Shown here: positions 27,832 through 63,704 of the stretch, in pieces
Position numbering within the stretch: the first letter of the stretch is position 1
How the letters are laid out: every line of letters begins with the position of its first letter
DNA from: Candidatus Bathyarchaeia archaeon
Lineage (GTDB): Archaea; Thermoproteota; Bathyarchaeia; Bathyarchaeales; Bathycorpusculaceae
DNA length: 64,000 nucleotides
Direction: 5' to 3'
Assembly: GCA_038882535.1 (NCBI GenBank)
Contig: JAVZOA010000001.1
Location: forward strand, 731 to 64,730
Notes under the pieces: model-generated
The model's input: the letters and a program-made list of their open reading frames with translations, nothing else
Database searches by the model: none
Told to the model about the DNA's origin: nothing
Translations under genes and position numbers: made by a program

Positions 27832-27909
27832 GCGGCCGTAGTCTAGCCTGGACTAGGACATCAGCCTGCCACGCTGACGACCCGGGTTCAAATCCCGGCG
27901 GCCGCACCA
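27832..27909 (+). tRNA. tRNA-Gly (anticodon GCC), CCA encoded
   Basis: Hand-folded cloverleaf: 7-bp acceptor GCGGCCG/CGGCCGC, D stem GTCT/GGAC, anticodon stem TCAGC/GCTGA with loop CTGCCAC, T arm CCGGG-TTCAAAT-CCCGG, discriminator A, then CCA. Confidence 0.9.
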
Positions 27910-27911
27910 CA
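27863..27911 (+). repeat. attL core (49-bp perfect direct repeat, 3' half of tRNA-Gly)
   Basis: agcctgccacgctgacgacccgggttcaaatcccggcggccgcaccaca is identical at 63647..63695. Confidence 0.9.
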
Positions 27912-28907
27912 AAACTTTCTCTTTTTGGGAAAAGAGAACCTTTACTAAGAGAAAATTGTGGGCTGCTTGGTTTTCAGGGTGTTTCTGCTGGAAGCGGTGT
28001 TAATTTGGCTCCGAGTTGGGGTTCTGCGGGTTGTGGGACGGTCCTGGGACGGTCCCAGCCGTTGGTTTGGGACGGCCCCGTTATTGATTATTGGGTTCTG
28101 CGGGATGGGTTTGTGGCTTTCCTTGAAAGCCGAAGGTTTAACGGGCGGTATGTTAAATGTATGCTGAGCTATTTGGATAAGTATGTTTCAGTGATTAGGG
28201 GTCCAATGGATGTTGTTAGGGTTTTCGCTGGTTTGACAGAGGGGCAGCAGCACAATTTGAGTAGGGGGCTTCGCAATCTCTTTAATTTCTTGGAGGCGCA
28301 GGGCTTTGATAAGGGGTATCTTGACGTTTTGCGAAGGAACATTCCGAAGGATAATTGTGGTTTTGATGTTCATATACCGTCTGAGGATGAAATCATAGCA
28401 AGTTTGAGGGTTATAGCTGATGGTTGTTTCAAGTATAGGGTTGTTTATGAGCTTATCCTTGACAGCGGCTTAAGGCTTGAGGAAGCTTGCAGGTTCATTA
28501 ACGCATTTAGCCGAGCTCAAGTTGAAGAGTTTGAAGGCTTTTGTGTTGCGCCCCTTGGATATTTTAGAAGGTCAAAATTTGCCTACTTCGCCTTCTTCAC
28601 GGACGAAACATTTAGGCTTCTCAAGCAGTTAAAGGAAAAAGTTGACCCCATAAGCGCTGTAACTTACCGGAGGAAAAAGCCTGGTCTTGTAGCCTTCAAG
28701 TATTTGCGGAAATTCGTCAATGACACCATGACAAGCGATGAACTCAACATACCAGAAAGCGTGGCAGACTTCATCCAAGGACGGACTCCAAAATCTATTG
28801 GCGCAAAACATTACATGAAGCTTAAGCGGAAAGCCATACAGTTCTACCCAAGATATGCAGAATACGTTTCAGGGTTAAGGCAAAAGGCTAAATTAATAAA
28901 AGCCTAA
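27863..28907 (+). CDS. SSV-type tyrosine integrase, C-terminal fragment Int(C)
   Basis: The ORF reads out of the att core without its own plausible start. The catalytic region has SGLRLEEA (Arg), FIQGR and GAKHY (Tyr). The att-encoded peptide [16 protein letters not shown] is shared in frame with the ORF at 63486. Confidence 0.8.
28019..28104 (+). repeat. nested short direct repeats inside the integrase linker region
   Basis: GGGTTCTGCGGG at 28019-28030 and 28093-28104 flanks three TGGGACGG(T/C)CC units at 28034, 28045 and 28068. Each unit contains GGACnGTCC. Confidence 0.7.
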
Positions 28908-28999
28908 AAAATCCCTTTTTCTGTTATCGCTAACACGGATGAATCGCCAAGGGGGATTGGAGGCTAATTTAATATTTTGCTTAGTCTTGTTATTTCTTT

Positions 29000-29356
29000 G
29001 TGAGAGATCCAAATTTTAAGGTTAAGATTTCGAATGTTGAGGAGCCTGTTAAGTTTGTTTTTGTTGATCTACCTGTTGATGTTGGCTTTCCTGTTAGCGT
29101 AGTGCCTTCGCATAAGTTAATGGAGATTGGAGTTAAGCCCATCGACAAAATTAAACTTTCATTGGCTGATGGCAAGGAAGCCATCAGAGATATTGGTGTG
29201 GTGTTTTTTGAGTTGATGGGGCGGAGGACCGTCGGCCCTGTTGTGTTTGGTGAGGAGAAAGATAAAAGCGTTTTAGGTGTTACTGTTCTCAAAACTTTGG
29301 GGTTTATGTTTGACCCCCAAACGGGCAAGTTAAAGCCTAAGAGAATACGCTTTTAA
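29000..29356 (+). CDS. retropepsin-like (clan AA) small aspartic protease paralog, DVGF variant
   Basis: Aligns with the 46736..47200 product: PVDVGFPVSVVPSHKLMEIGV vs LVDTGASGCAIGKELAEKLGL, and SVLGVTVLKTLG vs PILGLDVMRVLG. Confidence 0.6.
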   Translation: MRDPNFKVKISNVEEPVKFVFVDLPVDVGFPVSVVPSHKLMEIGVKPIDKIKLSLADGKEAIRDIGVVFFELMGRRTVGPVVFGEEKDKSVLGVTVLKTLGFMFDPQTGKLKPKRIRF

Positions 29357-29640
29357 CATATCTCCTCAGCTTCTACAATTATTCTGAAGCAAAATTTCGC
29401 AATCGGTCGTTGAAGCATCCTCTCATAAACCTGTTTTGGAATTATATCATCAAAACTTATGATTTCGGGTTTCTCCTTCCTCTTTTCCACAAGTTGTTTT
29501 AGAAGCTCTTGGAACCACCTTTTCATGGGCTCGTGTCCCTTTCCCTCTTCTCTGAGATAGTATGCTGGCTCTTTCTCGAGGCATGATGTTTCATAGTAAG
29601 AGACGAAGTAACCCTCAAAAACCGTCTCTTTCCTAAACAT
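29353..29640 (-). CDS. hypothetical protein
   Basis: 95-aa ORF at the end of the minus-strand late operon. Confidence 0.4.
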   Translation of the reverse strand: MFRKETVFEGYFVSYYETSCLEKEPAYYLREEGKGHEPMKRWFQELLKQLVEKRKEKPEIISFDDIIPKQVYERMLQRPIAKFCFRIIVEAEEIC

Positions 29641-29650
29641 TTCTACACCT

Positions 29651-30016
29651 CTATTTAGTAATGGGCCTTGTATGGATGAGGATGATGGACGCTCCCATCA
29701 TAAGGCATAAGAATGCAAACAGATTCGGATTCACAAAAATGATAGTGTAGGCGCCCACCATTATCATAAGGATCCCTAAAAACACGTCGTAGGCAAACAG
29801 AAACTTCCAATATTTAACTCCCTTCTTCAATGGAAATTGGAACTCTCTCAACAAGAATGAGTAGCCTAAAAAAGAAAGTGAAGATTCCGGTGAGATTAGG
29901 ATTTCTGGAATTGAATAGCCGAGAATGTAGGAGACAAAGGCAAAGGCCAACACGGCAAACCAAAACAGAAAAACTGCATATCCAGTCAACAACAAAACAT
30001 TCTTAAGGTTAGACAT
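29651..30016 (-). CDS. small membrane protein (about 4 TM helices)
   Basis: 121 aa consisting almost entirely of four hydrophobic segments. Confidence 0.55.
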   Translation of the reverse strand: MSNLKNVLLLTGYAVFLFWFAVLAFAFVSYILGYSIPEILISPESSLSFLGYSFLLREFQFPLKKGVKYWKFLFAYDVFLGILMIMVGAYTIIFVNPNLFAFLCLMMGASIILIHTRPITK

Positions 30017-30179
30017 GGGGTCTCACACGCCTCGTCGTCAAATAAAAGTGTCAAAATTCTCGTATAAACATAAAGGCGGTTCGTTTTCCTACGTTTTCTC
30101 TTTGAAATTTAACGAAAAACGGCGAAGAAGCTAAGAACAAGCAAAATTTACATTTTCAAAGCAAAATTACGAAACAATA

Positions 30180-31658
30180 TTATTTCTTCCAGAAAAGATA
30201 AACCTTAGTCTGTGATAGGAGGCCGCAAATTTTAATTAAGTGTGCAAGCCTTGAAAGGCTTGCTTTTTTAACTTCTTTATTGTAGGTTTGCTTTTTTCCG
30301 AATGGCATGTGACAAAAGAAGTATTTCATAAACCGTGCGTGGCTATACTTAATGAAGGCTTCTCTAACCGTTTGAATTTCTTTTTCGTTTAGGCTTTGAA
30401 GCCTGTTTAAAATGTATCTTTCGCTCCCAAGCAGGTGAATGTTGAAGCCCAGTTTCCGTAAAACCTCTGCAATTTTTAGAGCTTGTTTTGGCGGAGGCTG
30501 CTCAACTATTTTTTGCATTCCTGCTTTTTCTGCGAAGGGATTGTATTTTGCCATGACTGCTGGCATTTCCACGTAAGGCGTTCCCACTAAATGTAGTGTT
30601 TCTCTGACAAGTTTTGCCCCTAAACCAATAGTGCGATATTTCGGGTGCACAACAACACGGCTGATTATGCTCAGTTTTTCGTTAAGCTCTTTCATGCTCA
30701 TTTTTGGCAGGACAAGTCTTCTTCCGAAGCATGTCGGCGGCGGGTGGGCATACACGATCACTCCACAAAGCTCGTCGCCTCTTTTTAGACTGAAGATTTT
30801 TCGTGGACCAGCTATTTTGTGACTTCTATAATGGAATTCAGCGAGCTTATGCCAATCTTGAACCGTGCCTTCCTTTATGCGCATCTCTTTGACGAGGCTG
30901 CACTCTTTTGCTGGTTGGTTGGGGTAATAGTTTACGGTTATTTCTTTTCCGAACAGTTTATGGATGTGGACGCTTGGGTTTAAGTCTTCAAAAAGGTCTG
31001 TGTGGGTTGTCGCAGCTAAAACTGCTTTGCCCTGCTGCCTTGCCAGTTTCTGAAGGTTGTAGGCGACTATTTTTGCCGTGTCCCTGTCGAGTGTAGCTGC
31101 GAACTCGTCCATTATCCAGAATTGCGCTTGGCTTTCAATCATTTTGGCTATTTTGTAGCGGTATTTCTGGCCGTCTGAAAGTTGCTCGTAAGTGCGTAGG
31201 AATAGGAAAGCGTCGTTTAAACCGACTCGGCTTAAAAGCTCCAAAGCCTCTTCAAGGCTTTTACCAAGGGTTTCCACGAGAGGCTTGTCGCGGATTATTT
31301 GCTTTTCGACTTCAGCGATGTTTATGCAGGTCCAGTTGGTGTCCCGCCTTATGTCCTCTTCTAATGCCTTTAAAAGGACGCTTTTTCCGCTGCCTGAATC
31401 GCCTGTTATGTAAACGATGTCCGTCGGCCCAATTTTTAACTCAATGTTGTCGTAAATGACAAATTTCTGCCATTTGTCAAGGCCTAAACCGAAAGCTTCA
31501 GCTACTCCAACCACGCGGTCAGTAGGCTCTGGGGCTGCCGTTTCGTAGGCTATGTTGATGATAAACTTGCCTGACTTAACGTCGAATCTGCGTATGTGCT
31601 GCTTGATGACGAAATGTTCAGGCTTGGAAGTTGGCGGCTGCAAGGCTGTCTCCCACAT
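30180..31658 (-). CDS. ABC-type ATPase fused to a GNAT acetyltransferase domain
   Basis: Walker A GDSGSGKS, signature LSDGQ, Walker B FWIMDEF, H-loop TTHTD, then GNAT motif A ISRVVVHPKYRTIGLGAKLV. ATG at 31658 chosen; the longest ORF starts at 31724. Confidence 0.75.
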   Translation of the reverse strand: MWETALQPPTSKPEHFVIKQHIRRFDVKSGKFIINIAYETAAPEPTDRVVGVAEAFGLGLDKWQKFVIYDNIELKIGPTDIVYITGDSGSGKSVLLKALEEDIRRDTNWTCINIAEVEKQIIRDKPLVETLGKSLEEALELLSRVGLNDAFLFLRTYEQLSDGQKYRYKIAKMIESQAQFWIMDEFAATLDRDTAKIVAYNLQKLARQQGKAVLAATTHTDLFEDLNPSVHIHKLFGKEITVNYYPNQPAKECSLVKEMRIKEGTVQDWHKLAEFHYRSHKIAGPRKIFSLKRGDELCGVIVYAHPPPTCFGRRLVLPKMSMKELNEKLSIISRVVVHPKYRTIGLGAKLVRETLHLVGTPYVEMPAVMAKYNPFAEKAGMQKIVEQPPPKQALKIAEVLRKLGFNIHLLGSERYILNRLQSLNEKEIQTVREAFIKYSHARFMKYFFCHMPFGKKQTYNKEVKKASLSRLAHLIKICGLLSQTKVYLFWKK

Positions 31659-32739
31659 TATATTGTTGGGCTGAAGGCGGGGTTGGAGGCGTGAAAGTGA
31701 CTTGTAAAGCCAAAGCGTCAACATAGGCTGTTTCTTTGGATTTTACCGCTGGAACTGGCAGCTCATCCATAAACTGAGCCATAGAATAGCCGTGCTTCTT
31801 TAGGAATACAAAATCGCTTGGGTGAAACTCTTCAAGGCTTAGGAGGGCGTCTGCCCTCTCTAATATGACGTTGTAGGCTTTCGCTTTTCTTATGTGAAGC
31901 TCGGCTCTTTGTATGGGGACATTGACTATTTTATCGCTTAATCGTGTGAGTTTGCATGGTAGCCAAACCCTGTTGCCGTTTCGCAACTGCTCCCAAATCT
32001 GCTTTGACGTCATCTGGGTGTATTCGCTCTCTTTTAGCCCTTCAATCCAGACCCGGTGGGGATGCTCTGCTGTAAACGTGAAATGGGCTTGGTAAGCGAA
32101 CATTTCATTAGTTGCTTTGCTGCGCTTGTAGTGTGGTAGAATGTGAAGCGTTACCCACTCCTCGCCTTCGCTGCACCTAACCTCTTTAACTCTTGCAAAG
32201 CCGAAAATGCCTTCTTCAGCCAAGTAGGCGTGAAGTAAGTCGCCAGCTTTGACCTCTTTTACGTTAACGAACTCTTTTTGGTTGTCTTCCGTGAGCCTTA
32301 TGAAGTAGGTGTTTTCGGAATAGCATCCACCCGTAGCCGATTCTTTCATTTTTATTCTGCAATCCGCGTTGTTGAGCTTGTTCAAGTCCCAGCTCGATTC
32401 GTAGCTTGTTATGTCATACCAGTCCCAAGTTAGGGATGTCCTGTTTGGGCATTGAAGTTCGTGTGCTGCTCCTCCAGAGTCAATATATCTCAAAACTGTG
32501 TAATGATTGTAGCCAGACGGGTTCACTTCATAATGCTTTACACCGACCTTGACAGCCGTTATGACGCTGCCCGGCGGGATGTCGTTTTCAGTGAAGCCCC
32601 ACCCGCCATATTTCACTTCAGAACCGTCTATGCTTGAAGACGTGTAAACGCCATCTTCGGTGTAAGCGTTTTCAGGGCTAACCCATCCTGACACGATTAC
32701 TTGATTTGTGGACGGATTTTTAGTCACCACTTGACTCAT
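31618..32739 (-). CDS. putative tail fibre/receptor-binding protein containing a Hint-like module
   Basis: Last large gene of the tail module. The N-terminus looks like a beta-sandwich. The internal CYSENTYFIRL...VKAGDLL...FTFTAEHPHRVW resembles intein/Hint blocks A and B. The ATG at 32739 overlaps the upstream stop (TAATG). Confidence 0.5.
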   Translation of the reverse strand: MSQVVTKNPSTNQVIVSGWVSPENAYTEDGVYTSSSIDGSEVKYGGWGFTENDIPPGSVITAVKVGVKHYEVNPSGYNHYTVLRYIDSGGAAHELQCPNRTSLTWDWYDITSYESSWDLNKLNNADCRIKMKESATGGCYSENTYFIRLTEDNQKEFVNVKEVKAGDLLHAYLAEEGIFGFARVKEVRCSEGEEWVTLHILPHYKRSKATNEMFAYQAHFTFTAEHPHRVWIEGLKESEYTQMTSKQIWEQLRNGNRVWLPCKLTRLSDKIVNVPIQRAELHIRKAKAYNVILERADALLSLEEFHPSDFVFLKKHGYSMAQFMDELPVPAVKSKETAYVDALALQVTFTPPTPPSAQQYNVGDSLAAANFQA

Positions 32740-33209
32740 TAAGCCTGCACAGCCCCTATACAATAATCAACTGTTCCAGCAGCATCCAAATACAGCACAA
32801 GCGAGTCTCCAGCATTAGACTGCCAAGGTCTCACAAAGCTCTTAACCACGCCAGTTTTAGGCGCGAGCTTTCCTTTGAAAATGTTTTTTCCAGAAGTGCC
32901 AAAATGGAGGCGAACTCCAACATCGGCTGAACCGCTGTTCCATAGGCTTATGTCGTAAACGCGTACGACTTTCTCAGAAACAGGCGAGATTATTGTTGTG
33001 CTGCCTGCAGCCGTCGGCGAGTATGTCCCACTAACCTGATGAGCATCTAAAATGCGGTCCTCAGGCGTTAATTGAAGCTGCCCTTCCAGCATAGCGACTT
33101 TAAGGTTTCCCGCCGACGTGAGTGAGACTGGAAGCTGTTCTGAAACTATTTTGACGGTTTCGTCTTCTTTTGTTTTTACTGGAAGTGTAGTTACAACCTC
33201 TGCTGACAT
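32739..33209 (-). CDS. putative tail tip/baseplate-associated protein
   Basis: 156-aa ORF between the hub-like and fibre-like genes, beta-rich. The call rests on position only. Confidence 0.4.
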   Translation of the reverse strand: MSAEVVTTLPVKTKEDETVKIVSEQLPVSLTSAGNLKVAMLEGQLQLTPEDRILDAHQVSGTYSPTAAGSTTIISPVSEKVVRVYDISLWNSGSADVGVRLHFGTSGKNIFKGKLAPKTGVVKSFVRPWQSNAGDSLVLYLDAAGTVDYCIGAVQA

Positions 33210-33213
33210 TTTA

Positions 33214-34893
33214 TCATGCTCTTTTTAGGGTTGAAACTGCGCCTCTTCCGAGTTTGGTTCTGGAAAGTTTTTCAACGGTTACCGTTGTGCTGCGTAAACC
33301 ATAAAGATAGTCAGCCAATAATGGCGGAGCCTTGCCAAGTTCTAATACAACTTCCAAGGTTTGATTTTTCCCATCAACAACATATTCAACGCTTTCAATG
33401 CGGAAATAACCTGAAACACCCTCGTTAGGCAGTGAAACATAGATTTTGTCCCCCGGAAGTACAGGTGTGTTGCCATAGTCAAGAACTGTGGTTCGCACCA
33501 CAATGTAGTCTGCTGGGTCTTTTAGGTGGTTCAGTAAAGCCCTTGCCCTTAAAAGGCATTCATAGTCGCTGTAGAGTTCCTCGTCTGTTTCGGTTAGCTC
33601 TCTCAAACCATAGAGGTTTTGGCTGTTGGTGTCTTCAACGGTGGCGGAGTATCTGCAGTTTTCAAAGAGTATGTGGTCAACATACATCATTGCGTATTCG
33701 CCGAGTCCGCCTGACTCTGGAAACTGCATGTAGAGGCCTATACGGTTAATGTTGTTCCAGTCCGGGCTGCCGTAAGGCGCCCAATACTCTTCAAGGCTTA
33801 ACTCAATCTTTTTCCAAGTGTTCGGCGAGTCAACAAGGTCGTAAAGCAGTTCCCGATAATAATAGTTGTTTGCGTCTTTGTGAAGCCGCACTTGAATGGT
33901 TGAAGGGTTTACTCCGCTTCTGAAAGGTTGCCATTTAATCCAGAACCGCAGCTTCTTGAAGCCGTCAGGCTCTCTGGCTTTAATTGTGCTTGGCAAAATT
34001 CGGTAAAAGCCAATTCTGTCTTTGGTTGTGGAGTTATAAACCCAGTTAACCCTAATGGAATTGCTGTCTGTGTAAATTTTCTCCCCGTCCTTGGAAACAT
34101 GATCTGGTATGTCGACAACATCATGGTCGTCATAATACGGATACCAATTGTCACGGGTCTCTGTTAAGCCATCTTCGTTATCATCTGAGGGTAGCTTCTT
34201 TTCCAAAGAGCCTAAAACTTTGATTTTGTTGCGAATCCTGAAAATGTCCCTTTGATATTCACTGGCTTCAATTCTGTCTGTAAGGCTTACGGGTGATGTT
34301 TTACTGTTTTTGGGGAAAAATTCAAACTTGCCGTCTGGAGCCACTCTGAAGTCGAAGCCTACAACGCCGTTTTTGTCAGCGGACTCCGCAATATACTTGA
34401 TAATGTCCCAAACAGGCGTGTTCTCATATTCCAGCCACGTATAAGTTGTATCCGTGTTTTCAACAAGTTCTGTGGAATCCCTAACGTGGCTTAATCCTAC
34501 ATAATAATCCAAGAGGTATTTAACGATGGCTTCACCTTTCATGTTTTCAAAGGCACCAGTGAATACTCGGCGGAAAAGGCGTTCTCCCCAGCATCTGCCG
34601 CTGACCAGTGTGTAATGTTCGTTTGGCGTGGATTCATGTTTAATGGATTCAATGCGACAAGTTATTATCTGCGGAACATTAGAGCCTCTGCCAATAAAAA
34701 TGGAGCCGTCCATTCCAACAGCAAGCGGAACAGAACCGTTTGGGCTGTATTTACCGTCCCAATTCTGAAGTAGCAGTTCAAAACTGCTAACCTCTTTTGT
34801 GCAGCCTAAATGCACACGGCACTCGATTACATCGCTTTGCGGAATCCCATAACCGCCGAAGGCTAAAGCCATTTTTGGAGTTTCAACACTCAC
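33214..34893 (-). CDS. putative tail hub / distal tail protein
   Basis: 559 aa, directly downstream of the tape-measure-like gene with a 4-nt overlap. The N-terminus (VIECRVHLGCTKEVSSFELLLQNWDGKYS) resembles gpD/gp27-type hub N-domains. Confidence 0.5.
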   Translation of the reverse strand: MSVETPKMALAFGGYGIPQSDVIECRVHLGCTKEVSSFELLLQNWDGKYSPNGSVPLAVGMDGSIFIGRGSNVPQIITCRIESIKHESTPNEHYTLVSGRCWGERLFRRVFTGAFENMKGEAIVKYLLDYYVGLSHVRDSTELVENTDTTYTWLEYENTPVWDIIKYIAESADKNGVVGFDFRVAPDGKFEFFPKNSKTSPVSLTDRIEASEYQRDIFRIRNKIKVLGSLEKKLPSDDNEDGLTETRDNWYPYYDDHDVVDIPDHVSKDGEKIYTDSNSIRVNWVYNSTTKDRIGFYRILPSTIKAREPDGFKKLRFWIKWQPFRSGVNPSTIQVRLHKDANNYYYRELLYDLVDSPNTWKKIELSLEEYWAPYGSPDWNNINRIGLYMQFPESGGLGEYAMMYVDHILFENCRYSATVEDTNSQNLYGLRELTETDEELYSDYECLLRARALLNHLKDPADYIVVRTTVLDYGNTPVLPGDKIYVSLPNEGVSGYFRIESVEYVVDGKNQTLEVVLELGKAPPLLADYLYGLRSTTVTVEKLSRTKLGRGAVSTLKRA

Positions 34894-35591
34894 GGCTCAA
34901 CACCACGCCTATACATTTCTTCGCCAGCCCGCACAACAGTTCTAACATGCACTGTTCTTCCAGCCATCTCGCTGACAGCTGCATTATATTCCTTGACAGA
35001 TTCCGTGGCGGTGTTCATTTGACTGGCAAACATAGCCATCGCAGCAGCGGCAGCCATAATAACGCCTATACCAACACCCGTCAAAGCCAGAAAAGTGGCG
35101 TGGCTAATGTTTAGGGCGTTTTGAGCGTGAACTGCAAGCCATGTGGCGGCAGCCTTAACCTTATGGGCTGCGGCTACGAGAAGGCTGCTTGAGGCGTTAG
35201 CTGTCTGCATCGTCGTGTTTGTAGCTACGGCTGCCGTGTGTGTCGATGTCAAAACTGTTATGTAATGTTGAACCCTTACGAAAATGCCGAGCAATGTTAT
35301 AACATGCGTTATTGTGCGCATCCACTTGGCGCTTTCACGGTCAATAAGCCCAAAATCAGCAGCTAAAGTAATTAAATGTGAGCCTAACATTCCAATGCTG
35401 CTTATTCCACGGGCAACCGTTAACAGGCTAATGTTACAAGATTCCGCGTGAGCCTTCATCTCGTCAAAGGCTGTTGCAGAGGCTCGGACTTGGCTTCCCA
35501 TGCGTGCAGCGTCGCTGCTAACAGCCTCAAATGTTGGAGTAGCCTCGTTCACGGCTCTTATGGTTACGGCTATTTCGCCGACGCTGCTCAA
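34890..35591 (-). CDS. putative tape measure protein (short, 233 aa)
   Basis: Ala/Thr/Ser-rich helical protein with hydrophobic segments. Sits between the chaperone/gp10-like genes and the hub gene. Confidence 0.5.
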   Translation of the reverse strand: MSSVGEIAVTIRAVNEATPTFEAVSSDAARMGSQVRASATAFDEMKAHAESCNISLLTVARGISSIGMLGSHLITLAADFGLIDRESAKWMRTITHVITLLGIFVRVQHYITVLTSTHTAAVATNTTMQTANASSSLLVAAAHKVKAAATWLAVHAQNALNISHATFLALTGVGIGVIMAAAAAMAMFASQMNTATESVKEYNAAVSEMAGRTVHVRTVVRAGEEMYRRGVEP

Positions 35592-52483: not shown

Positions 52484-52585
52484 TTTCCTTTCTCCTTTGT
52501 TCGGCAAAAAATATTATAATGTTGAATTTTTGCTTAAATTTTACGGAAAAATCTTCTATAACGGTTGTCTACATCACTTTCGGTT

Positions 52586-55714: not shown

Positions 55715-55735
55715 TTGTCTTGCTTATTTGCATCT

Positions 55736-56548: not shown

Positions 56549-56632
56549 TTACAAGGTGAGGAAGGCAGAAGTATGAAACACGATAGCTGCAGACAAACTT
56601 AAATCCTCTTATCGTTCATTTATTAATATGCT

Positions 56633-56758: not shown

Positions 56759-56845
56759 TATGAGTTGTTTACCGATAAGCAAACTTTGGTGTTTTCGCCG
56801 GTGCAAAACTATAAATATCCCTTTTAATGCTACAATAACAATAGA

Positions 56846-57058
56846 ATGGTTGAAAAAGACCTTTCACAAAAAATAATTACCTTATTAAAAAGTAATCCAG
56901 GACAAACGATAAAGGAAATAGCCATCCAACTTAAAGTCAATAGAACTTTTCTTTCAGGCTACCTCAGAGCACTTGAAGATAAAGGTTTTATCAAATCTAA
57001 AGAAGTAGGATCGGCGAGAGTTTATTTTGCGAGGGTTTCAGATGATGTTACAAAATAA
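56846..57058 (+). CDS. winged-helix transcriptional regulator (MarR/ArsR-like)
   Basis: QTIKEIAIQLKVNRTFLSGYLRALEDKGFIKSKEVGSARVYF. The 3' end overlaps the methyltransferase start. Confidence 0.65.
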   Translation: MVEKDLSQKIITLLKSNPGQTIKEIAIQLKVNRTFLSGYLRALEDKGFIKSKEVGSARVYFARVSDDVTK

Positions 57059-59039
57059 TCGTTTTTCACCCGGTGAGAAGTTATGTATTTGTAAGCTAAA
57101 ACATGATATCAGGGTTGAAAGTAAGATAGATCTTGCGAGAGAAGAAATTAAAGTATCTATCGGTGTAGAGCCTGAAACTGTTTATTCGTTGCCTCTTTTA
57201 ATTAAAAAGGAACCCATTGTCACCAAGCTTCACGATAAAGTCTTGCACAGAATGATGAGATTGCTTTATCTTGGCAAAGCTCAAGGATTTATATTTAAAG
57301 AGTTTGATATTACCAATTTAAAAAAATTAGCAAAACGCGCAACTTACCTGCGCGAATTTTATGTAATTCTGAAGATACCAAAGTATGATATAATTAATTT
57401 AGTTAATGAGCTGGATTATAAATGTAATCCTATCGAACTACAAAAAACTGAACAATTCATAGATATCTCGCCAAACCTTCAAGTATTCAACCAACAATTA
57501 AATGCGGAATATTATCTCGCAACTTTAATATTTATTCCATGCCAAACAATCCTTGAGTACTGCTCTGAAATTCTTAAGTTACCTTATGTAACCTTCACAA
57601 AACAGTTTACAAATCTTTCCGAAAGAATTAAAGTAATGGAAAAAGGTGTTGAAAAAGGAATAGATGAACTTTTTGATCATTTAAATCATGAATTTGATAG
57701 AATGCCTTGGCTTGGACTTTTCAAAGAGCATATCGGGGACTATGTTGATTGGGCTTTTTCAGATTTTAGAACGTGGGGTCTACATTTTATTCATAAGCAT
57801 GAAGGAAAGGCTGATCCATGGTTAGCTCGATCTGCATTGAATCTGTTAGGTGTTGAGGAAGGCTGCAAGGTTTTAGATCCTTTTTGCGGCTCCGGTAGTT
57901 TTATAGCAGACGCGCCTCTTATGAATATTAATGCATACGGGGTAGACATAAACCCGCTTTCAACATTGATTGCAAGGGTAAAATGTAGTCTTACCGAACT
58001 TCCACTAATTGAATTGAAAGAAACAATGCTAAAAATTCATGATAAAGCTTTGGCCAATGACCTTTCTGTAGGCAAGATAAAATTTCAACAACTAATAAAA
58101 GACTTAGGCGTCAGGGAAATACATGAGTTATCCCATAAGCAGAAGTTATTTGAAAAAATATTATCGATAAAGGAGAGCATAGATGCTTACGCACATAATG
58201 AATTAGTAAAAGACTTCCTATATACAATTTTAAGCCGATCCATAATTGATGTTTCTGAGAAAAAGAAAATTAATATTTGGTACAATTTTATCTCGGATTT
58301 TATAAATTTCTATCTTTTAGCTTATGCAACTCAACAAGCCTTGCGCAAATTAAACGTAGAATCTAAAGGTTGCTGTAAAATAATAACGGGTGATTCGCAC
58401 AGTATCCAAGAGTTATTAGGATATGAAAAAGTGGATGGAATTGTATGTTCGCCGCCATACTTTGATGCATTGGATTACGTAAGCTTCTCGATGTTGCCTA
58501 TACTTATTCTTGGATTACATGACGAAGCAAAAGAACTTTATATCAATACTATAGGGTCAAAAGCAAGAACTGCAAACTTAGACAAAGATTGTATATTAAC
58601 ATTGCCCGAGTCGAGCAGACATTTGATAAATGAACTTCTAAATCATAAGAGGCAGAAAAAAGCTCAGGTGGTGCTGAAATATTTATTAGATATGAGAGAT
58701 TGCCTAACCGAATTTTCTAAGATTGTTAAACAAGGGTCACGTGTTATATTTGTCGTAGGGAGATATCACCATTGGAAATTTGGTGCAAGTGAAATGCAAG
58801 TTGATGGAGCCCAAGTGTTAATTGACCTGGGAGAAAGCGCAGGGCTCGTATTAGAAGATGAATTATCTCATAACATTTCAAAGATAGAGGCTGGCAAAAG
58901 GATTAAGGAGGAGTCCGTCATAATCTGGAAAAAGGATAACATTCCGAGTAAGAGGAATTTGGAACGTTCTAAAAATGTGATTAAATTTTATCAAGAAAAA
59001 AGTAGGATTAAAGGATTAGATGCATGGTTAGGGACTTAA
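57042..59039 (+). CDS. DNA (amino) methyltransferase with about 280-aa unknown N-terminal region
   Basis: Motif I VLDPFCGSGSFI and motif IV IVCSPPYFD about 195 aa later. The SPPY tetrapeptide is typical of N4-cytosine/N6-adenine MTases. Confidence 0.75.
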   Translation: MMLQNNRFSPGEKLCICKLKHDIRVESKIDLAREEIKVSIGVEPETVYSLPLLIKKEPIVTKLHDKVLHRMMRLLYLGKAQGFIFKEFDITNLKKLAKRATYLREFYVILKIPKYDIINLVNELDYKCNPIELQKTEQFIDISPNLQVFNQQLNAEYYLATLIFIPCQTILEYCSEILKLPYVTFTKQFTNLSERIKVMEKGVEKGIDELFDHLNHEFDRMPWLGLFKEHIGDYVDWAFSDFRTWGLHFIHKHEGKADPWLARSALNLLGVEEGCKVLDPFCGSGSFIADAPLMNINAYGVDINPLSTLIARVKCSLTELPLIELKETMLKIHDKALANDLSVGKIKFQQLIKDLGVREIHELSHKQKLFEKILSIKESIDAYAHNELVKDFLYTILSRSIIDVSEKKKINIWYNFISDFINFYLLAYATQQALRKLNVESKGCCKIITGDSHSIQELLGYEKVDGIVCSPPYFDALDYVSFSMLPILILGLHDEAKELYINTIGSKARTANLDKDCILTLPESSRHLINELLNHKRQKKAQVVLKYLLDMRDCLTEFSKIVKQGSRVIFVVGRYHHWKFGASEMQVDGAQVLIDLGESAGLVLEDELSHNISKIEAGKRIKEESVIIWKKDNIPSKRNLERSKNVIKFYQEKSRIKGLDAWLGT

Positions 59040-59043
59040 CTTC

Positions 59044-60315
59044 TTAAGATAAGCCTTCTACAAGTGCTGGTAAGCCCTCTATTATTGGATATAATGGAAC
59101 AACCTCACCGCGTTGAATCCCAGAATCCTCTTTGTAAAGACATTTTAGATGCACTATTTTTTTATTAGTTCTGTTGCTTGCGAAGTTCATGATCTCCGTA
59201 GATACTGCTGCGTCTGGGCACTCCTTCACTTTATCTTCGCCACAGATATTAACACAAGTTAAATTTTGCGGCTCCATTTTATCGAATTTCAAATCGCCTT
59301 CAACTTCTCGTTCAATGAACGTCTTGCACATGATAAAACTTCTATAGCACCTATTACATTTAAAGCCAAAGTCAAACCATGACCCTATTTTCTTATTGCC
59401 TATTAGCACGTTTATCTGTGTTGTAGGAATTGCACAAGCCCCTGAAAATGTTGCCACCAGTTCTGCCTTTCGAGTTCTGAAGAAGGCTCTTTCTCTTCCC
59501 ACTTCAATTCCCATTACTTTACCGCCCTTTATGATTAAGAAATCTGGGGTCGGAACCATCGGAACCCCGTTACGGTTTGAGAGGAAATTTCTCAGTCCCT
59601 TAAAAATTCGTTGATACAATAATGTTGGAATAACAAAACCGATATTTTCAAATACCAATTTTTGCCACACAAAGAGCTCTTTAGCTAAACCTGTGTTCTT
59701 GATTAGAAAAGGTGGAGTTGTTTCCGGAAGAAATTTTTCCTTTATTTTGTCTTCCAGAACCTCGAGAGATAACGCTCCATAACCTAAAATTTGTTCAATT
59801 TTTCGTTTTAAAATAGGATTTGAAAAAATTAAATTTGCATAATGGCTTGCAATAACGGATCTCATTTCATTTTGTGCATCCTTATATGTTCTTGGGAAAG
59901 GAACAGTGCTGGGATGAAATGGTTCATGGTCTTTATGCGTTTCACTCGGAGGATGAATATTCGTTAACAATAGATAATTTATAAAGTAAAGAAGATACTT
60001 TTGAGCTTGTTTCATGCCTTCTTTATCATCCGTACCAATACAATTCGCAATATACATAGTCAAACGGGAAGTTAAAAGAAATTCAATGATATCAGCTGCG
60101 TTCCAAACGCCTATACTTCCCCAATCACAAAACGTTTTTTTAATTTCCTGCCGTTTGCTCAATGAAGAGAACGCATTTTCCAGTTCGCCAATTTTATTTT
60201 TTGCAGTGGGCGGAAAAAGTTTTTCCATATCATCTGATTTCCATACCTTATCAAATTCTCTTAAAAATAACAAAACATCTTCTATCGATTCACATAAATC
60301 TTTAATCATAATCAA
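59044..60315 (-). CDS. nuclease-like protein (PD-(D/E)xK-like core plus Cys cluster), candidate restriction or defence component
   Basis: TPDFLIIKGGKVMGIEVGRE resembles a PD...E core, but the Lys is not in the canonical place. It is followed by CNRC...C and C..C...C. Convergent with the MTase, 4 nt apart. Confidence 0.4.
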   Translation of the reverse strand: MIMIKDLCESIEDVLLFLREFDKVWKSDDMEKLFPPTAKNKIGELENAFSSLSKRQEIKKTFCDWGSIGVWNAADIIEFLLTSRLTMYIANCIGTDDKEGMKQAQKYLLYFINYLLLTNIHPPSETHKDHEPFHPSTVPFPRTYKDAQNEMRSVIASHYANLIFSNPILKRKIEQILGYGALSLEVLEDKIKEKFLPETTPPFLIKNTGLAKELFVWQKLVFENIGFVIPTLLYQRIFKGLRNFLSNRNGVPMVPTPDFLIIKGGKVMGIEVGRERAFFRTRKAELVATFSGACAIPTTQINVLIGNKKIGSWFDFGFKCNRCYRSFIMCKTFIEREVEGDLKFDKMEPQNLTCVNICGEDKVKECPDAAVSTEIMNFASNRTNKKIVHLKCLYKEDSGIQRGEVVPLYPIIEGLPALVEGLS

Positions 60316-60428
60316 ATTTCCCCTCTTCGATTGTATTATATATCAAGTATCACTAATAAACTCAGATAAAATTTTTGTCATTGATTATACCATAAGCTAT
60401 AATAAGTTGTTAAAAAACATTGATCTCG

Positions 60429-61085
60429 ATGAGCGAAAAAGAAACTTTAGATAAGATACGAGTTTATAGAGAAATCATCGCCAGAGTTCTTGAAGCTTTT
60501 AAGGGAGTATCATTCCCCATAGTGGTAGAAGTTGCAACAAATACTAAAGTGGAACCTTTCAATTTAAAGAACAAAGAAGATGCAAAACTTGTTGAAGAGC
60601 TTTCCATGTTAGCAGATATAGTAATAAGAAAATTTTACAGTAAGCCTATAAAAATAAAAAGAATAAATGAAGTAAGTAATTTTCTCGAAAAAGAATTGCC
60701 AAAAGTATTCATTGAAGAAAAGAACAAATTCAACGTCATTAAAAAGTTTGAACACCTCGGTGGAGTAGGATATCCCGACGAGGAGATCCAAGATATCTAT
60801 GGAAGAACAACTTATATTGATATAAAAGGAACAACAAGACCAGAAACAGGCTCGGCCAGAGATTTTTACTTTACACCAGGTGCAGAAACAAGGAAAAAGA
60901 TTAAGGCAGATGCAAGACACGCATTATTAAGTTTTATAATAAGCGGAAGCCCAAATGAGTTCGCAACTAATGGTTGGATACTTGTAGATCTGTCAAAAAT
61001 TTCTGTCAGCATGAAACCTGAATTTAATGCTGACAATACAGAATTGTACCGGAAAGAAACTATAATAGCGGAAGGGCATATATAG
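60429..61085 (+). CDS. type II restriction endonuclease-like protein (PD-(D/E)xK)
   Basis: GYPDEEIQDIYGRTTYIDIKGT gives PD-x15-DIK. A TATA-like CTATAATAAG lies about 25 nt upstream of the ATG at 60429. Confidence 0.55.
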   Translation: MSEKETLDKIRVYREIIARVLEAFKGVSFPIVVEVATNTKVEPFNLKNKEDAKLVEELSMLADIVIRKFYSKPIKIKRINEVSNFLEKELPKVFIEEKNKFNVIKKFEHLGGVGYPDEEIQDIYGRTTYIDIKGTTRPETGSARDFYFTPGAETRKKIKADARHALLSFIISGSPNEFATNGWILVDLSKISVSMKPEFNADNTELYRKETIIAEGHI

Positions 61086-61155
61086 CAACTTTCACTTTTA
61101 CTGATGTTTAAATTTTAAATATCAATAGTGAAATATTGTTGTAATGTGATCTTTT

Positions 61156-62433: not shown

Positions 62434-62736
62434 TTATTTTCGTTTTAACATAGAAATAAAATTGTCTATCGGTATGGCTGGCATGCTTGTAATCTTCACA
62501 GTTCCGCGGGATCCAAGCTCAACAGAAATTCTTGCAACAGTCTCATTATCAGGTGCCTCTACAATATTTACAAAGTCGTAGGGTCCTAAAACCGCCCATT
62601 GATGAATAACCTTAGCGCCAAAAGCCTCAACCTCCTTATTAACCTCTTTAATCCTTTCAGGTCTCTCCTTAATTGTCTTCCTACCCTCAGCCGTTAGCTC
62701 AGAAAGAAGAATATAGGTTGGCAGAATCTCACCCAA
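62434..62736 (-). CDS. GYD-family protein
   Basis: PTYILLSELTAEG...VLGPYDFVNIVEAPDNETVARISVELGSRG has the GYD-type signature. TTG start with TATA-like TTAAAAT about 27 nt upstream. Confidence 0.65.
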   Translation of the reverse strand: MGEILPTYILLSELTAEGRKTIKERPERIKEVNKEVEAFGAKVIHQWAVLGPYDFVNIVEAPDNETVARISVELGSRGTVKITSMPAIPIDNFISMLKRK

Positions 62737-63015
62737 AATTTACTTGACCTCAACGAATTTTAACTTTTCTGTCATACAAAACACGTCGGCGCATCATCAA
62801 CAAAGAAAAAATTTAGATAAAAATGTATAAATTTATTGATAGTTCCAGTAAAGTTTTTATATTGGTGCAAATCACTCTTCTTTTTCCGGAAGGAGATGAA
62901 AGCCCAAAACGGGTTCGGGTGAAATCGTTCTATTTTTGTCCTTCTCTCCTTTCTCCCCTCTTTCGGATCACCCGGACCCGTGGGAAACAACCCAAATTTA
63001 TTACGCCAAAAACAG

Positions 63016-63030
63016 ACATTTAAAGTTTAA
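63016..63030 (-). repeat. inverted copy of the 15-bp sequence at 55700..55714
   Basis: acatttaaagtttaa is the reverse complement of ttaaactttaaatgt. Lies near the right edge of the low-G+C block. Confidence 0.7.
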
Positions 63031-63130
63031 GAAAAAATCTTCTATTACAATTTTCTATAACTATTCCTCATTTCGCATTCTATAATCAAACTTAGATTTC
63101 CAAATTCCATAACTTACCTTGTAAAAGCTT

Positions 63131-63364
63131 CTACTCTATTGGGATTGTTTCCCAGACGCCTCCACGCCTTCTCGGAAACCTGATTCTTATTTGTCCTTCC
63201 CTAAACTCTACTTTAAGGTCCTCTTTCTTAACATCCCTCGGAATTCTCAAAGTCAAAATTACCTCGTCAGCCGTTCTATCCACATCCACCAAGCCGAACT
63301 CCCACCATTCAGGCATCCAGAAGCCAAAGCCAAAGGGTCCAAACCTATAATAATGGTGAGGCAA
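63131..63364 (-). CDS. truncated Hsp20/alpha-crystallin-like protein
   Basis: VDVDRTADEVILTLRIPRDVKKEDLKVEFREGQIRIRF resembles the first strands of the alpha-crystallin domain. At only 77 aa it is incomplete relative to sHSPs. Confidence 0.45.
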   Translation of the reverse strand: MPHHYYRFGPFGFGFWMPEWWEFGLVDVDRTADEVILTLRIPRDVKKEDLKVEFREGQIRIRFPRRRGGVWETIPIE

Positions 63365-63456
63365 ACCACCACCTCCAAAAACAAAACCAAAACGGGAAAA
63401 TAAAAACTTACACCCGCAAAAATGCGGAGACCATTAAAAGAAAAATTTTACTGCCA

Positions 63457-63463
63457 TTTAAAA
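63457..63463 (+). promoter_or_regulatory. TATA-like box upstream of Int(N)
   Basis: TTTAAAA centred about 26 nt upstream of the ATG at 63486, consistent with a leaderless archaeal transcript. Confidence 0.3.
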
Positions 63464-63485
63464 GCCAGAAACAACAAAATAATAT

Positions 63486-63704
63486 ATGCGAAAGAAAGGG
63501 TGGAAAAGAAGAATGCCTAAACCCGGAATGACTGGAATAAGTCTCAAAAAAGAAGTCGCCGATTTACTAAGAGCCAAAGCAAAAGCCTCCAAAATGGGAA
63601 TAAACGATTTTCTAAGGTTAATTTTAGAAAAGGAGCCTTTAAATCAAGCCTGCCACGCTGACGACCCGGGTTCAAATCCCGGCGGCCGCACCACAGACTT
63701 TTAA
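63486..63704 (+). CDS. SSV-type integrase N-terminal fragment Int(N), RHH-like
   Basis: [33 protein letters not shown] (strand-helix-helix), then reads into attR as [16 protein letters not shown], the same frame and peptide as Int(C). It terminates 9 nt after the repeat. Confidence 0.75.
63647..63695 (+). repeat. attR core (49-bp perfect direct repeat)
   Basis: Identical to 27863..27911. It is a tRNA 3' half without a 5' half. Confidence 0.9.

Follow-up and report, generated by a model that had tools for sequence, protein, structure and literature searches.

Described tailed viruses of Bathyarchaeia and suicidal integrases

Tailed viruses and proviruses of Bathyarchaeia are already known from published work (PMC10848311; PMC11705971; PMC13573593). 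Fuxivirus is a hot-spring Bathyarchaeia virus of 31,982 bp for which the name 'Fuxiviridae' has been proposed (PMC10848311), and BATPV1/2 and others, by description, resemble the element reported here in being head-tailed Bathyarchaeia MAG proviruses with an integrase, a tRNA, direct repeats, and defence genes (PMC11705971; PMC13573593). Neither of the latter two papers mentions SSV-type or split integrases. Integrases of the SSV1 type, in which attP lies within the int ORF, have been described for SSV1/SSV2, pTN3, and pT26-2 (PMC8371274; PMC7253208). The att sites of these suicidal integrases are quoted as 40-50 bp, and PF16795 is the domain of the suicidal families (PMC8371274).

Here we analyzed a 64,000-nucleotide stretch of DNA (the window), in which positions 27912-63695 very likely represent a temperate head-tailed virus (Caudoviricetes) in integrated form, with an SSV1-type suicidal integrase. 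All close homologues and loci of the element come from Bathyarchaeia, and the host is a Bathyarchaeia archaeon. As in the SSV1-type systems, the integrase has a PF16795 catalytic domain with the R/K/KxxR/R/Y positions of SSV1 Int conserved, its att of 49 bp fits the quoted range and is identical in sequence to the 3' portion of a tRNA gene, and int(N) and int(C) lie at opposite ends of the element. It departs from these systems in being carried by a head-tailed virus instead of a spindle-shaped virus or plasmid, in a host from Bathyarchaeia and not from Sulfolobales, Thermococcales, or Archaeoglobales, and in having an RHH-looking N-terminal fragment and tandem GGGACSGTCC linker repeats.

The element shares with Fuxivirus its host class, genome size class, and T4-type TerL, and the head genes of the two, compared by order and size, are nearly the same (TerL, portal, 84/85-aa MuF-like protein, 103/104-aa protein, 375/372-aa protease, 130-aa DUF2190 protein, and MCP). 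Both also encode tail genes of the siphovirus type and a gp10-like protein, but the tail module here differs in its 286-aa tube protein, 466-aa barrel protein, and short tape measure candidate. Whereas Fuxivirus encodes a type IV-B CRISPR-Cas cluster and Cas4, with no integrase mentioned (PMC10848311), our element encodes an integrase, and none of the ORFs scanned matched a Cas gene. Among the deposited phage and archaeal-virus genome records searched, the nearest is Halogranum tailed virus 1 (HGTV-1; MCP tblastn, E=6e-8, 23.6% identity across 91% of the query), which has an HK97-type MCP and is also the best match of the Fuxivirus TerL, but is a very distant relative with a 144-kb genome, recorded from a haloarchaeal host (Halogranum). 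In IMG/VR, the MCP has more than 100 relatives at 68-91% identity, and Fuxivirus is absent from the best 80 of them. Given these relatives and the published Bathyarchaeia proviruses, the original view of archaeal tailed proviruses outside haloarchaea and methanogens as sparsely characterised no longer holds for this group.

Insertion site and split integrase gene

Exact search of the window found the 49-bp direct repeat at the two att positions (Table 1), and 100 shuffles of the sequence gave no match. Allowing shorter cores and up to three mismatches revealed no third or degenerate att copy. In agreement with the original prediction, the repeat is perfect and comprises the 3' part of tRNA-Gly(GCC), from 5 nt 5' of the anticodon (GCC, 27868-27870) to 2 nt beyond the CCA, and the second copy lacks a tRNA 5' half: Rfam (RF00005) detected a tRNA at 27832-27906 (64.7 bits) but none at 63647-63695.

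A related Bathyarchaeia genome (L007, JAVZNT010000003.1), colinear with the left flank of the window over more than 10 kb, carries the empty site. There, an RsmB-like gene, a tRNA-Gly(GCC) identical to that of the window, the sequence ACCACA followed directly by GA, and a tautomerase gene adjoin one another. Because the flanks are directly joined in L007, 27912-63695 (35,784 bp) is an insertion; the roughly 36-kb block is missing there from otherwise colinear flanks and is not shared by all related genomes. The genes outside the repeats are housekeeping genes, as had been predicted. Those on the left, named via the orthologous locus, encode an eIF-2B family protein, tRNA-intron endonuclease, HisRS, a UPF0113 protein, and an RsmB-like methyltransferase, and a 4-oxalocrotonate tautomerase family gene lies on the right, where the window includes only 305 bp of flank. 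The same site holds different related elements in L001, L010, and L013, and related elements were also found at other tRNAs.

The integrase, missing from the earlier gene list, was recognised in two parts. int(C) matched PF16795 (2.6e-27) and the SSV1 Int catalytic-domain structures 3UXU/3VCF/4DKS (E=6e-26), and int(N), which probably starts with Met at 63513, gave a weak match to RHH_1 (E=0.055). Joining 63486-63695 to 27912-28907 yields a single stop-free ORF of 401 codons, in which att, derived from the tRNA, separates an RHH-like N-terminal part from the catalytic domain (residues 225-387). R258, K292, K333xxR336, R361, and Y371 are invariant in the alignment with the SSV1 Int structures. 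Both partial ORFs translate att in identical phase, and the int linker contains no stop in the integrase frame versus four and eight in the other two frames. In two homologues, P0051 and P0039, the gene is unsplit, with RHH, tRNA-like att, and catalytic domain in one ORF, and the tRNA targets differ; the P0051 ORF includes the 3' half of tRNA-Leu(UAA). Eight stand-alone Int(N) fragments occur in other Bathyarchaeia (best, 98% identical), and all eight end just past the translated tRNA segment. Translated tRNA T-arm sequence is likewise present at the start of many int homologues. The protein collection searched contained no close full-length integrase, and neither attP-junction nor Int(N)-att patterns, which would indicate a circular or episomal form, matched metagenome contigs exactly. 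These features place the integrase in the SSV1 family and indicate that the int gene itself contains the attachment site and was split by integration. The tandem repeats in the int linker are candidate arm-type or regulatory sites; among 129 loci, the motif was found only beside the tRNA-Gly(GCC) att sites of L001, L010, and L012.

Virion and accessory genes

Terminase, portal, and HK97-capsid profiles all found matches in the element (Table 1), and these hallmarks, together with the empty site in L007, support the predicted tailed-virus provirus in an archaeal tRNA-Gly(GCC). Of the structural genes originally listed, TerL, portal, decoration, MCP, and tube were confirmed by Pfam, and the frameshifted chaperone is supported by its slippery site. 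The MuF-like match was weak; protease-scaffold, adaptor, and tape measure obtained no profile confirmation and are suggested by position or weak matches, and the hub label is likewise tentative.

Table 1. Features of the element and its insertion site (positions in the window).
Feature	Position	Strand	Evidence
tRNA-Gly(GCC), intact; 3' part regenerated by att copy of element	27832..27909	+	ARAGORN
attL, left copy of 49-bp direct repeat	27863..27911	+	Exact match, 0 expected by chance
int(C), C-terminal 347 codons of split SSV-type integrase, reading open through tRNA-derived att	27864..28907	+	PF16795, SSV1 Int structures
Two tandem GGGACGGTCC repeats and degenerate third copy, inside int linker	28035..28078	+	3 matches (both strands) vs 0.07 expected
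ABC-type ATPase, 514 aa, weak GNAT-like region; cargo/accessory	30180..31724	-	PF00005 9e-13, PF00583 3e-4, phrog_293 4e-37
Distal tail/baseplate-like genes (381, 156, 559 aa)	31618..34893	-	559 aa, profiles; other two, position only
Hydrophobic protein, 233 aa, possible short tape measure	34890..35591	-	phrog_339 E=1e-3 only; weak
HK97 gp10-like tail-completion protein	35588..35956	-	PF04883 8e-12, phrog_5 2e-17
Tail assembly chaperone G (36072-36488) and -1 frameshift product GT	35953..36488	-	Slippery site, frame
Tail tube protein	36488..37348	-	PF18906 1.9e-15
466-aa protein, (alpha/alpha)6-barrel glycan-enzyme-like fold and C-terminal beta-sandwich (predicted)	38349..39749	-	AF2 model, Foldseek
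Major capsid protein (MCP), HK97-type	40669..41562	-	PF25209 7e-14
Capsid cement/decoration protein (DUF2190)	41577..41969	-	PF09956 9.5e-11
Putative capsid maturation protease, 372 aa, scaffold-like acidic coiled-coil tail	41989..43107	-	Position and size
MuF/SPP1 gp7-like minor head protein fragment, 85 aa	43439..43696	-	PF04233 2.6e-5 (under curated cut-off), phrog_4728 9e-4
Portal protein	43693..45036	-	PF04860 1.8e-15
Large terminase subunit (TerL), T4-type	45040..46428	-	PF03237 1.4e-20, PF17289 7.8e-7
NosD/beta-helix and PKD/Ig protein, 1518 aa, secreted, membrane-anchored (predicted)	47951..52507	-	PF05048 5.8e-40, PF13229, PKD, Ig
Divergent RHH (CopG) regulator pair	54833-55024, 55137-55562	-, +	PF01402 6e-6 and 5e-7
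Low-GC island (about 35%): wHTH regulator, type II R-M genes, 423-aa protein	56846..61085		GC profile, PADLOC
int(N), N-terminal RHH-like fragment of split integrase, through attR, stop 9 nt past attR	63486..63704	+	Phase, homologues
attR, right copy of 49-bp repeat, without tRNA 5' half	63647..63695	+	Exact repeat; ARAGORN, Rfam

The putative protease corresponds in position and size to Fuxivirus_32 'Peptidase_S78' (375 aa; Table S4, PMC10848311); searches of Pfam, PHROGs, NCBIfam, and PDB gave no match, and modelling lent no support. In the chaperone gene, the minus strand carries a canonical -1 heptamer, T_TTT_TTA, in the correct phase at 36150-36156, with the -1 frame becoming open a short way upstream of it and encoding a 65-aa protein-like extension; the match to Pfam TAC_5 was marginal (E=0.2). 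The 559-aa protein is YqbQ-like (PF24032, 9e-8; phrog_400 'tail', 2e-8), and the tail is probably non-contractile. The 466-aa protein, which has 938 homologues in many Bathyarchaeia genomes (62-78% identity), is not a sheath. Its AF2 model (pLDDT 75.6, pTM 0.82) predicts a glycan-enzyme-like barrel, for which Foldseek gave GH76, GH8, and cellobiose 2-epimerase as matches at E about 1e-6.

Among the accessory genes, the 514-aa ATPase is kept in related proviruses (78-82% identical in L001 and L124-L127). The translation of the 1518-aa protein has a signal-like N-terminus and a hydrophobic C-terminal segment; this large surface protein is a candidate cargo or host-interaction protein. The divergent arrangement of the RHH pair suggests a likely lysogeny switch. 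PADLOC identified a type II DNA methyltransferase at 57027-59039 (MTase_II, 5.8e-32) and a type II restriction enzyme at 60420-61085 (REase_II, 1.3e-22). Profile searches of the element's ORFs recognised no replication gene.

Proposed history and alternative readings

We propose that the virus genome was circular and encoded a tyrosine integrase of the SSV1 type ('type I', 'suicidal') in a gene about 392-401 codons long. Between the RHH-like and catalytic parts of this gene would have lain attP, whose 49 bp duplicate the 3' part of tRNA-Gly(GCC) in the host. Recombination of attP with the tRNA gene, presumably by this very integrase, would have integrated the virus and restored the tRNA while cutting int, leaving int(C) at attL, beside the tRNA, and int(N) at attR, the opposite end.

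In a classical arrangement, a small RHH gene (regulator- or excisionase-like) would end just past attP and a separate int of about 300 aa would follow downstream, so that att would be intergenic and the frame continuity coincidental. Most database int homologues are indeed annotated at about 300 aa and match no more than the C-terminal 68-74% of the rejoined protein, and stand-alone RHH fragment ORFs exist; the linker peptide also looks low-complexity, and GGGACSGTCC as a DNA motif can account for part of its conservation. Yet annotations of this length are the expected gene-caller output on integrated copies, and none of the eight Int(N) fragments stops ahead of the tRNA-derived segment. With the matching phase over 401 stop-free codons, the independent unsplit ORFs of P0051 and P0039 at different tRNAs, and a catalytic domain characteristic of suicidal families (PMC8371274), we regard the classical arrangement as improbable.

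It is quite improbable that a tailed provirus and an independent island (roughly 55.6-63.4 kb, with R-M genes and small, host-like AsnC-type, GYD, and Hsp20-like genes) share the tRNA site as a composite, given only two att copies and integrase halves that lie outermost at both ends and fit each other exactly. GC content does drop from about 45% to about 35% at 55-62 kb, and right-end genes recur beside the same tRNA without structural genes in L010 and L129. In L129, the counterparts of 52.8-53.4 kb and of 61.65 kb lie side by side, which marks 53.4-61.6 kb as variable, but acquisition of an R-M cassette inside one element accounts for this more simply. A trapped, domesticated, or decaying element, now non-viral and, for example, producing tailocin- or GTA-like particles, might be suspected from the split integrase, the lack of a recognised replication gene, the unusually conserved structural proteins, exemplified by the 466-aa protein, and the decayed copy at the same locus in L129. 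This reading is highly improbable: the repeats are perfect, every large ORF is intact, and an integrase is present, while the empty sister site, varied occupants, and varied tRNAs are features of a mobile rather than a vertically fixed element.

The provirus is apparently intact and may still be viable. Its head and tail gene set looks complete, but the original suggestion that it may be inducible needs qualifying because integration split the integrase gene: self-excision is uncertain, and excision would need either a related intact integrase in trans or complementation between fragments. What is unusual, and modestly new, about this element is that a suicidal integrase is paired with a tailed virus. 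Such elements do become trapped and decay, as another MAG (L129) shows: its copy of the site is occupied by a remnant of 4.7 kb whose Int(N) is 98% identical.

Insertion at tRNA-Gly(GCC) and its empty counterpart

The original prediction placed the provirus in a tRNA-Gly(GCC) gene between the two copies of an exact 49-bp direct repeat, and a search of the window upheld this: the 49-mer AGCCTGCCACGCTGACGACCCGGGTTCAAATCCCGGCGGCCGCACCACA occurs exactly twice, in both cases on the plus strand, and found no match in 100 shuffled sequences. Searches with shorter cores and up to 3 mismatches detected neither a third or decayed att copy nor a tandem att in the window. ARAGORN identified a single tRNA, tRNA-Gly(GCC), and Rfam concurred (RF00005, 64.7 bits), with no other Rfam match over the window. 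The repeat starts 5 nt ahead of the anticodon and stops 2 nt beyond the encoded CCA, in agreement with the predicted span from the anticodon stem of an intact tRNA to just past its CCA. The second copy, which had been said to lack the tRNA 5′ half, has no Rfam tRNA match.

We scanned species-representative genomes with the RsmB-like protein encoded immediately left of the tRNA. The scan recovered 30 Bathyarchaeia loci, the closest with 86% protein identity, and tRNA-Gly(GCC) adjoins the RsmB-like gene in six of the closest loci. At locus L007 (MAG DRTY-6_201912_bins_68, JAVZNT010000003.1), tRNA-Gly(GCC) is followed directly by a tautomerase gene orthologous (92% identity) to the right-flank gene of the window, which belongs to the 4-oxalocrotonate tautomerase family, and the left flanks of the two are colinear over more than 10 kb. 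A three-way alignment resolved the junctions (marked by a slash) as ACCACA/GATTTT in L007, ACCACA/GACTTTT at attR and ACCACA/AAACTT at attL. L007 is a clean empty site. Because its flanks are directly joined, 27912-63695 is an insertion of 35,784 bp, one att copy included. With the block missing from L007, the synteny across all relatives that would have refuted the original prediction does not hold. The insertion was site-specific, into the 3′ part of the tRNA gene, and rebuilt the tRNA. All named close homologues of the integrase, of a 466-aa protein and of the flanking genes come from Candidatus Bathyarchaeia or Bathyarchaeota.

In four metagenome contigs (L003-L006), an intact tRNA-Gly(CCC) precedes the tautomerase gene (e.g., L003:6270-6592; compare window 63647-63944 and L007:9501-9829). 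Their tautomerase protein is 100% identical to that of the window, and their upstream genes (PurS, PurM, HTH and NosD-like) differ. These loci prompted us to consider a rearrangement or assembly chimera at the right flank, which we rejected for the window since L007 has tRNA-Gly(GCC) next to the tautomerase gene. The two tRNAs have their 3′ 34 nt in common, and the switch between them ahead of the tautomerase gene resembles the outcome of a chromosomal rearrangement that broke within this shared 3′ stretch. Rearrangements of this kind have been attributed to archaeal integrases or homologous recombination.

An SSV-type integrase split across the two ends

The gene list of the original prediction contained no integrase; we found one of the SSV type, in two parts at the two ends of the element and in frame across att. 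The C-terminal part, Int(C), begins within the tRNA at attL, while the N-terminal fragment, Int(N), has 72 codons, traverses attR and stops 9 nt past it; both ORFs share one phase across the 49 bp of att. When 63486-63695 is joined to 27912-28907, the arrangement of a circular genome, a single ORF of 401 codons without stops results. Residues 225-387 of the rejoined protein match PF16795 'Archaeal phage integrase' (2.6e-27), and the family profile matches the SSV1 Int catalytic-domain structures 3UXU, 3VCF and 4DKS (E=6e-26). Across 13 family sequences R258, K292, K333, R336, R361 and Y371 never vary, nor do the segments GLRL, FRxSK, KYLRKF, FIQGR and HY. These segments align with SSV1 GVRL, RGYK, KYFRKF, QGR and HY, and the aligned Arg, Lys, Lys-x-x-Arg, Arg and Tyr are the catalytic residues. 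A review assigns the PF16795 domain to 'suicidal' integrases of the SSV, pTN3-like and pT26-2-like types, which have attP within their own gene, are split upon integration and use an att of 40-50 bp (PMC8371274). The att of the present element, 49 bp of tRNA gene, lies within that range.

Several lines of evidence indicate that the gene is split and that its two parts do not share a frame by chance. No stop interrupts the integrase frame of the 330-nt linker that connects att to the conserved domain, versus four and eight in the other two frames, and the 95%-identical copy at the related locus L001 has an open linker as well. Integrase homologues (n=293) are mostly about 300 aa long with N-termini that are translated tRNA T-arms ('GFEP', 'GSNP'); gene callers yield such proteins on integrated copies. 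Two homologues are unsplit: P0039 (PF07362 and PF16795) and P0051 each encode, in one unbroken ORF, an RHH-type N-terminus, then a tRNA-like segment and a catalytic domain. P0051 spans 97% of the rejoined protein, and the tRNA-Leu(UAA) sequence within its ORF comprises the anticodon, variable and T arms, the acceptor stem and CCA. Moreover, a search with the 70-aa N-terminal fragment retrieved eight stand-alone Bathyarchaeia proteins of 60-111 aa, every one of which consists of an RHH-like domain, a translated tRNA segment and a few unrelated codons. The best of these, 98% identical, lies at locus L129 (GCA_038870895.1) directly ahead of an att copy and the tautomerase gene. The Int(N) of the window has a weak RHH match of its own in Pfam (E=0.055), and its probable RHH identity rests mainly on these homologues.

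The linker also contains tandem GGGACSGTCC repeats (GGGACGGTCC); from the tRNA-Gly(GCC) att they lie about 125-145 nt downstream. Relatives carry them at L001:10031-10075, L010:4202-4223 and L012:428-449, and the motif is absent from the remainder of the window (expected count 0.07) and from 126 further loci. These DNA repeats account for the peptide 'GTVLGRSQ' being kept between integrases that are only 48% identical, and they could act as a binding site, either arm-type or regulatory. Two IMG/VR proviruses (L126:1-120 and L127:1-130) have an 18-nt insertion in the T-arm of the tRNA-derived att beside Int(C), GGGATTC[TCGCTTTGTTCTTGTGTT]TCGAGCCC.

Structural and accessory genes

The structural genes lie on the minus strand between about 47.7 and 31.6 kb and form a complete-looking morphogenesis module. 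Terminase, portal and capsid genes were recognized by profile searches, and Pfam matches substantiated the predicted TerL, portal, decoration, MCP and tube genes (see the table). The predicted frameshifted chaperone was likewise borne out by an in-phase T_TTT_TTA and a −1 frame that opens just upstream of this slippery site and continues for 65 protein-like codons. ORF 35588-35956 was considered as the frameshift partner and rejected: it is gp10-like, and the true −1 frame is different.

Features of the provirus, with positions in the window and supporting evidence
Feature	Position (strand)	Evidence
tRNA-Gly(GCC)	27832-27909	ARAGORN, Rfam
attL	27863-27911 (+)	49-mer search
Int(C)	ends 28907	PF16795
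GGGACSGTCC repeats	28035-28078	
ABC-type ATPase, 514 aa	30180-31724 (−)	
Tail chaperone ORF	36488-36072	T_TTT_TTA at 36156-36150, phase right for −1 slippage
Chaperone −1 frame	to 35953	
466-aa protein	38349-39749 (−)	
HK97 gp10-like tail-completion protein		PF04883 8e-12, phrog_5 2e-17
YqbQ-like tail protein		PF24032 9e-8, phrog_400
Tail tube		PF18906 1.9e-15
HK97-type MCP, fold read from profile		PF25209 7e-14, above curated cut-off; tblastn match to HGTV-1 MCP
DUF2190 cement/decoration protein		PF09956 9.5e-11
Portal		PF04860 1.8e-15, PF06074 3e-11
T4-type TerL		PF03237 1.4e-20, PF17289 7.8e-7; ~27% identity to annotated TerL genes
Retropepsin-like aspartyl protease	46736-47200 (−)	PF13650 1e-8, PF13975, DTGA motif
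1518-aa protein	47951-52507 (−)	
Small genes without recognizable function	52.8-54.9 kb	
Divergent CopG/RHH gene pair	54.8-55.6 kb	
Low-GC island	55600-61100	
Type II methyltransferase	57027-59039	PADLOC MTase_II 5.8e-32
Type II restriction enzyme	60420-61085	PADLOC REase_II 1.3e-22
Int(N)	63486-63704	
attR	63647-63695 (+)	49-mer search

Other predicted labels fared less well. The MuF-like gene stands as an 85-aa ORF whose MuF match falls below threshold, and no profile confirmed the labels 'protease-scaffold', 'adaptor' and 'tape measure': the 372-aa ORF bearing the first had no match in Pfam, PHROGs, NCBIfam or PDB and gave a single-sequence AF2 model with pLDDT 41, the 'adaptor' found no support, and the 233-aa 'tape measure' had one match at E=1e-3. 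Fuxivirus, a hot-spring Bathyarchaeia virus, has the gene series TerL, portal, 84-aa MuF-like, 103-aa, 375-aa Peptidase_S78, 130-aa DUF2190 and MCP (PMC10848311 Table S4), and on the gene order and sizes of that table its head module is almost the same as that of the present element. It is plausible that the 372-aa ORF encodes the capsid protease, since its position and size parallel those of the Fuxivirus Peptidase_S78 gene.

A non-contractile tail is probable, because the element has a tube and a G/GT chaperone and no sheath. The 466-aa protein, encoded between the head-completion genes and the tube, was considered as a sheath and rejected because its model has an (alpha/alpha)6-barrel fold. 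It has 938 homologues, nearly all of 461-464 aa; 120 listed are 62-78% identical, and all named ones are from Bathyarchaeia. The model (17-sequence alignment, pLDDT 75.6, pTM 0.82) resembles GH76 mannanases, GH8 and cellobiose 2-epimerases (E ~1e-6, TM ~0.5), followed by a beta-sandwich. A role in degrading or binding glycans, with the protein carried on the virion, is a possibility. Two genes upstream of the terminase lies a gene for a retropepsin-like aspartyl protease, which is unusual in a head-tailed virus.

Adjoining the tail genes is an ABC-type ATPase with a weak GNAT region. Related proviruses that match in integrase and terminase at only 49-54% identity have this gene at 78-82% identity (L001:15431-16888, L124-L127), and in L126 and L127 it directly follows TerL and not the tail genes, which suggests unusually strong conservation or recent exchange. 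A signal-like N-terminus, NosD/beta-helix repeats, PKD/Ig domains, a C-terminal hydrophobic anchor and a basic tail are recognizable in the 1518-aa protein, with weak metallophosphoesterase-like matches in its middle part; it resembles a surface protein of archaea, here borne by a virus. Its beta-helix repeats are the sole tandem-repeat array in the window, in which we found no CRISPR-like array. NosD-like genes also adjoin tRNA-Gly genes in L003 and L010.

A divergent regulator pair is the usual layout of a lysogeny switch, and the CopG/RHH pair is by its divergent layout a candidate for this role. The adjacent island, with about 35% GC versus about 45% in the rest of the element, encodes a membrane protein, a wHTH protein, the methyltransferase, a 423-aa protein and the restriction enzyme, the methyltransferase and endonuclease forming type II R-M cargo in one neighborhood. 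Near attR are small Zn-ribbon, AsnC-type, GYD and Hsp20-like genes. Profile searches recognized no replication protein in the element.

Relatives, states of the site and routes of excision

The tRNA-Gly(GCC) site is a hot spot. Empty in L007, it is followed in L001 (GCA_038856605.1, JAWCGZ010000004.1; 9828-18144) by a 95%-identical Int(C), a Rad51-like gene, DUF8156, a family B DNA polymerase (PolB) and an ABC ATPase up to the contig end. L001 thus joins the same integration module to a replication module that the window element lacks. A reading of it as a wholly different element was softened, as the ABC ATPase is common to both (82% identity). L010 and L013 have cut-down integrase remnants after tRNA-Gly(GCC). 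At the same tRNA-Gly site, L129 (JAVZJH010000085.1, 417-5209) holds a 4.7-kb remnant between att copies. This remnant has Int(N), genes homologous to those at window 52.8-53.4 kb and 61.65-63.7 kb, and a 591-aa CLIPPER-domain gene; it is without Int(C), any structural gene or the R-M island, and the counterpart of 53.4-61.6 kb is missing. It is a decayed relative of the window provirus. The empty, occupied and remnant states fit the trapping and decay described for suicidal-integrase elements. We also considered a gene-transfer-agent-like or domesticated particle locus and rejected it, as an integrase and perfect att are present and the site is empty in L007 and holds other elements in L001, L010, L013 and L129. 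Mobility across genomes is shown as well.

A circular viral genome would have recombined via the att segment inside its integrase gene, and it is for this reason that the lysogen would have no intact integrase. Excision would consequently need an integrase in trans or complementation of the two fragments. An intact related integrase could come from a second element, a rescue discussed for SSV2 and pTN3 (PMC8371274), or Int(N) and Int(C) could complement each other. The original suggestion that the element may be inducible is qualified accordingly. Since the ORFs are intact and the repeats perfect, the sequence argues for a recent and viable insertion. Searches of metagenome contigs with exact attP-junction and Int(N)-att patterns gave no match to an episomal junction, and the protein-collection homologues include no close full-length integrase. 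In 80 IMG/VR relatives no integrase lies within 10 kb of the MCP gene. A scan of IMG/VR with a single integrase protein had no match, and an alignment-based scan found only integrated copies, beginning at Int(C); in one such provirus the second att is absent at the other end of the stored contig. A more far-reaching proposal, which we regard as improbable, is that suicidal SSV-type integrases are in use in a widespread lineage of head-tailed viruses of Bathyarchaeia and that their split is functional: Int(N) would persist as a stand-alone RHH DNA-binding protein, bind the GGGACSGTCC repeats beside att and serve as a regulator or directionality factor built into the element, with self-excision perhaps made possible by its renewed association with Int(C).

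Published head-tailed viruses of Bathyarchaeia include the proposed 'Fuxiviridae', to which Fuxivirus belongs, and 'Kunpengviridae' (PMC10848311) and eight tailed proviruses, BATPV1 and BATPV2 among them (PMC11705971); a survey of 770 archaeal proviruses is also available (PMC13573593). The MCP has 111 relatives in IMG/VR, 80 listed being 68-91% identical, and several IMG/VR proviruses start with a related Int(C). Given these published viruses and the many MCP relatives, the element adds one more example to a group already known. The nearest match in deposited genome records of phages and archaeal viruses is Halogranum tailed virus 1 (HGTV-1), with 23.6% MCP identity. Reviews (PMC8371274 among them) describe suicidal SSV-type integrases from hyperthermophile plasmids and spindle viruses, with hosts in Sulfolobales, Thermococcales, Archaeoglobales and a few Methanosarcinales, and one cryptic thaumarchaeal element with such an integrase has been reported (PMC6563490). 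In the part of the literature that is searchable we found no head-tailed archaeal virus with an SSV-type split integrase and no such integrases in Bathyarchaeia, an absence that is not proof of novelty. A tailed virus and Bathyarchaeia would represent a modest extension of the range of suicidal integrases.

Bathyarchaeia are an abundant class of uncultured archaea. Our analysis confirms the original observation, supports its interpretation, and adds the split SSV-type integrase and the comparative site series. For Bathyarchaeia it provides a cleanly bounded, apparently complete tailed provirus whose boundaries are backed by a natural empty site. Pipelines that seek an intact integrase beside a tRNA will call a truncated integrase in such elements and may misplace the far boundary. 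With one tRNA-Gly site seen empty, with a full provirus, with a related provirus carrying a PolB module and with a decayed remnant, the findings bear on how elements that destroy their own integrase gene upon integration persist and get out.
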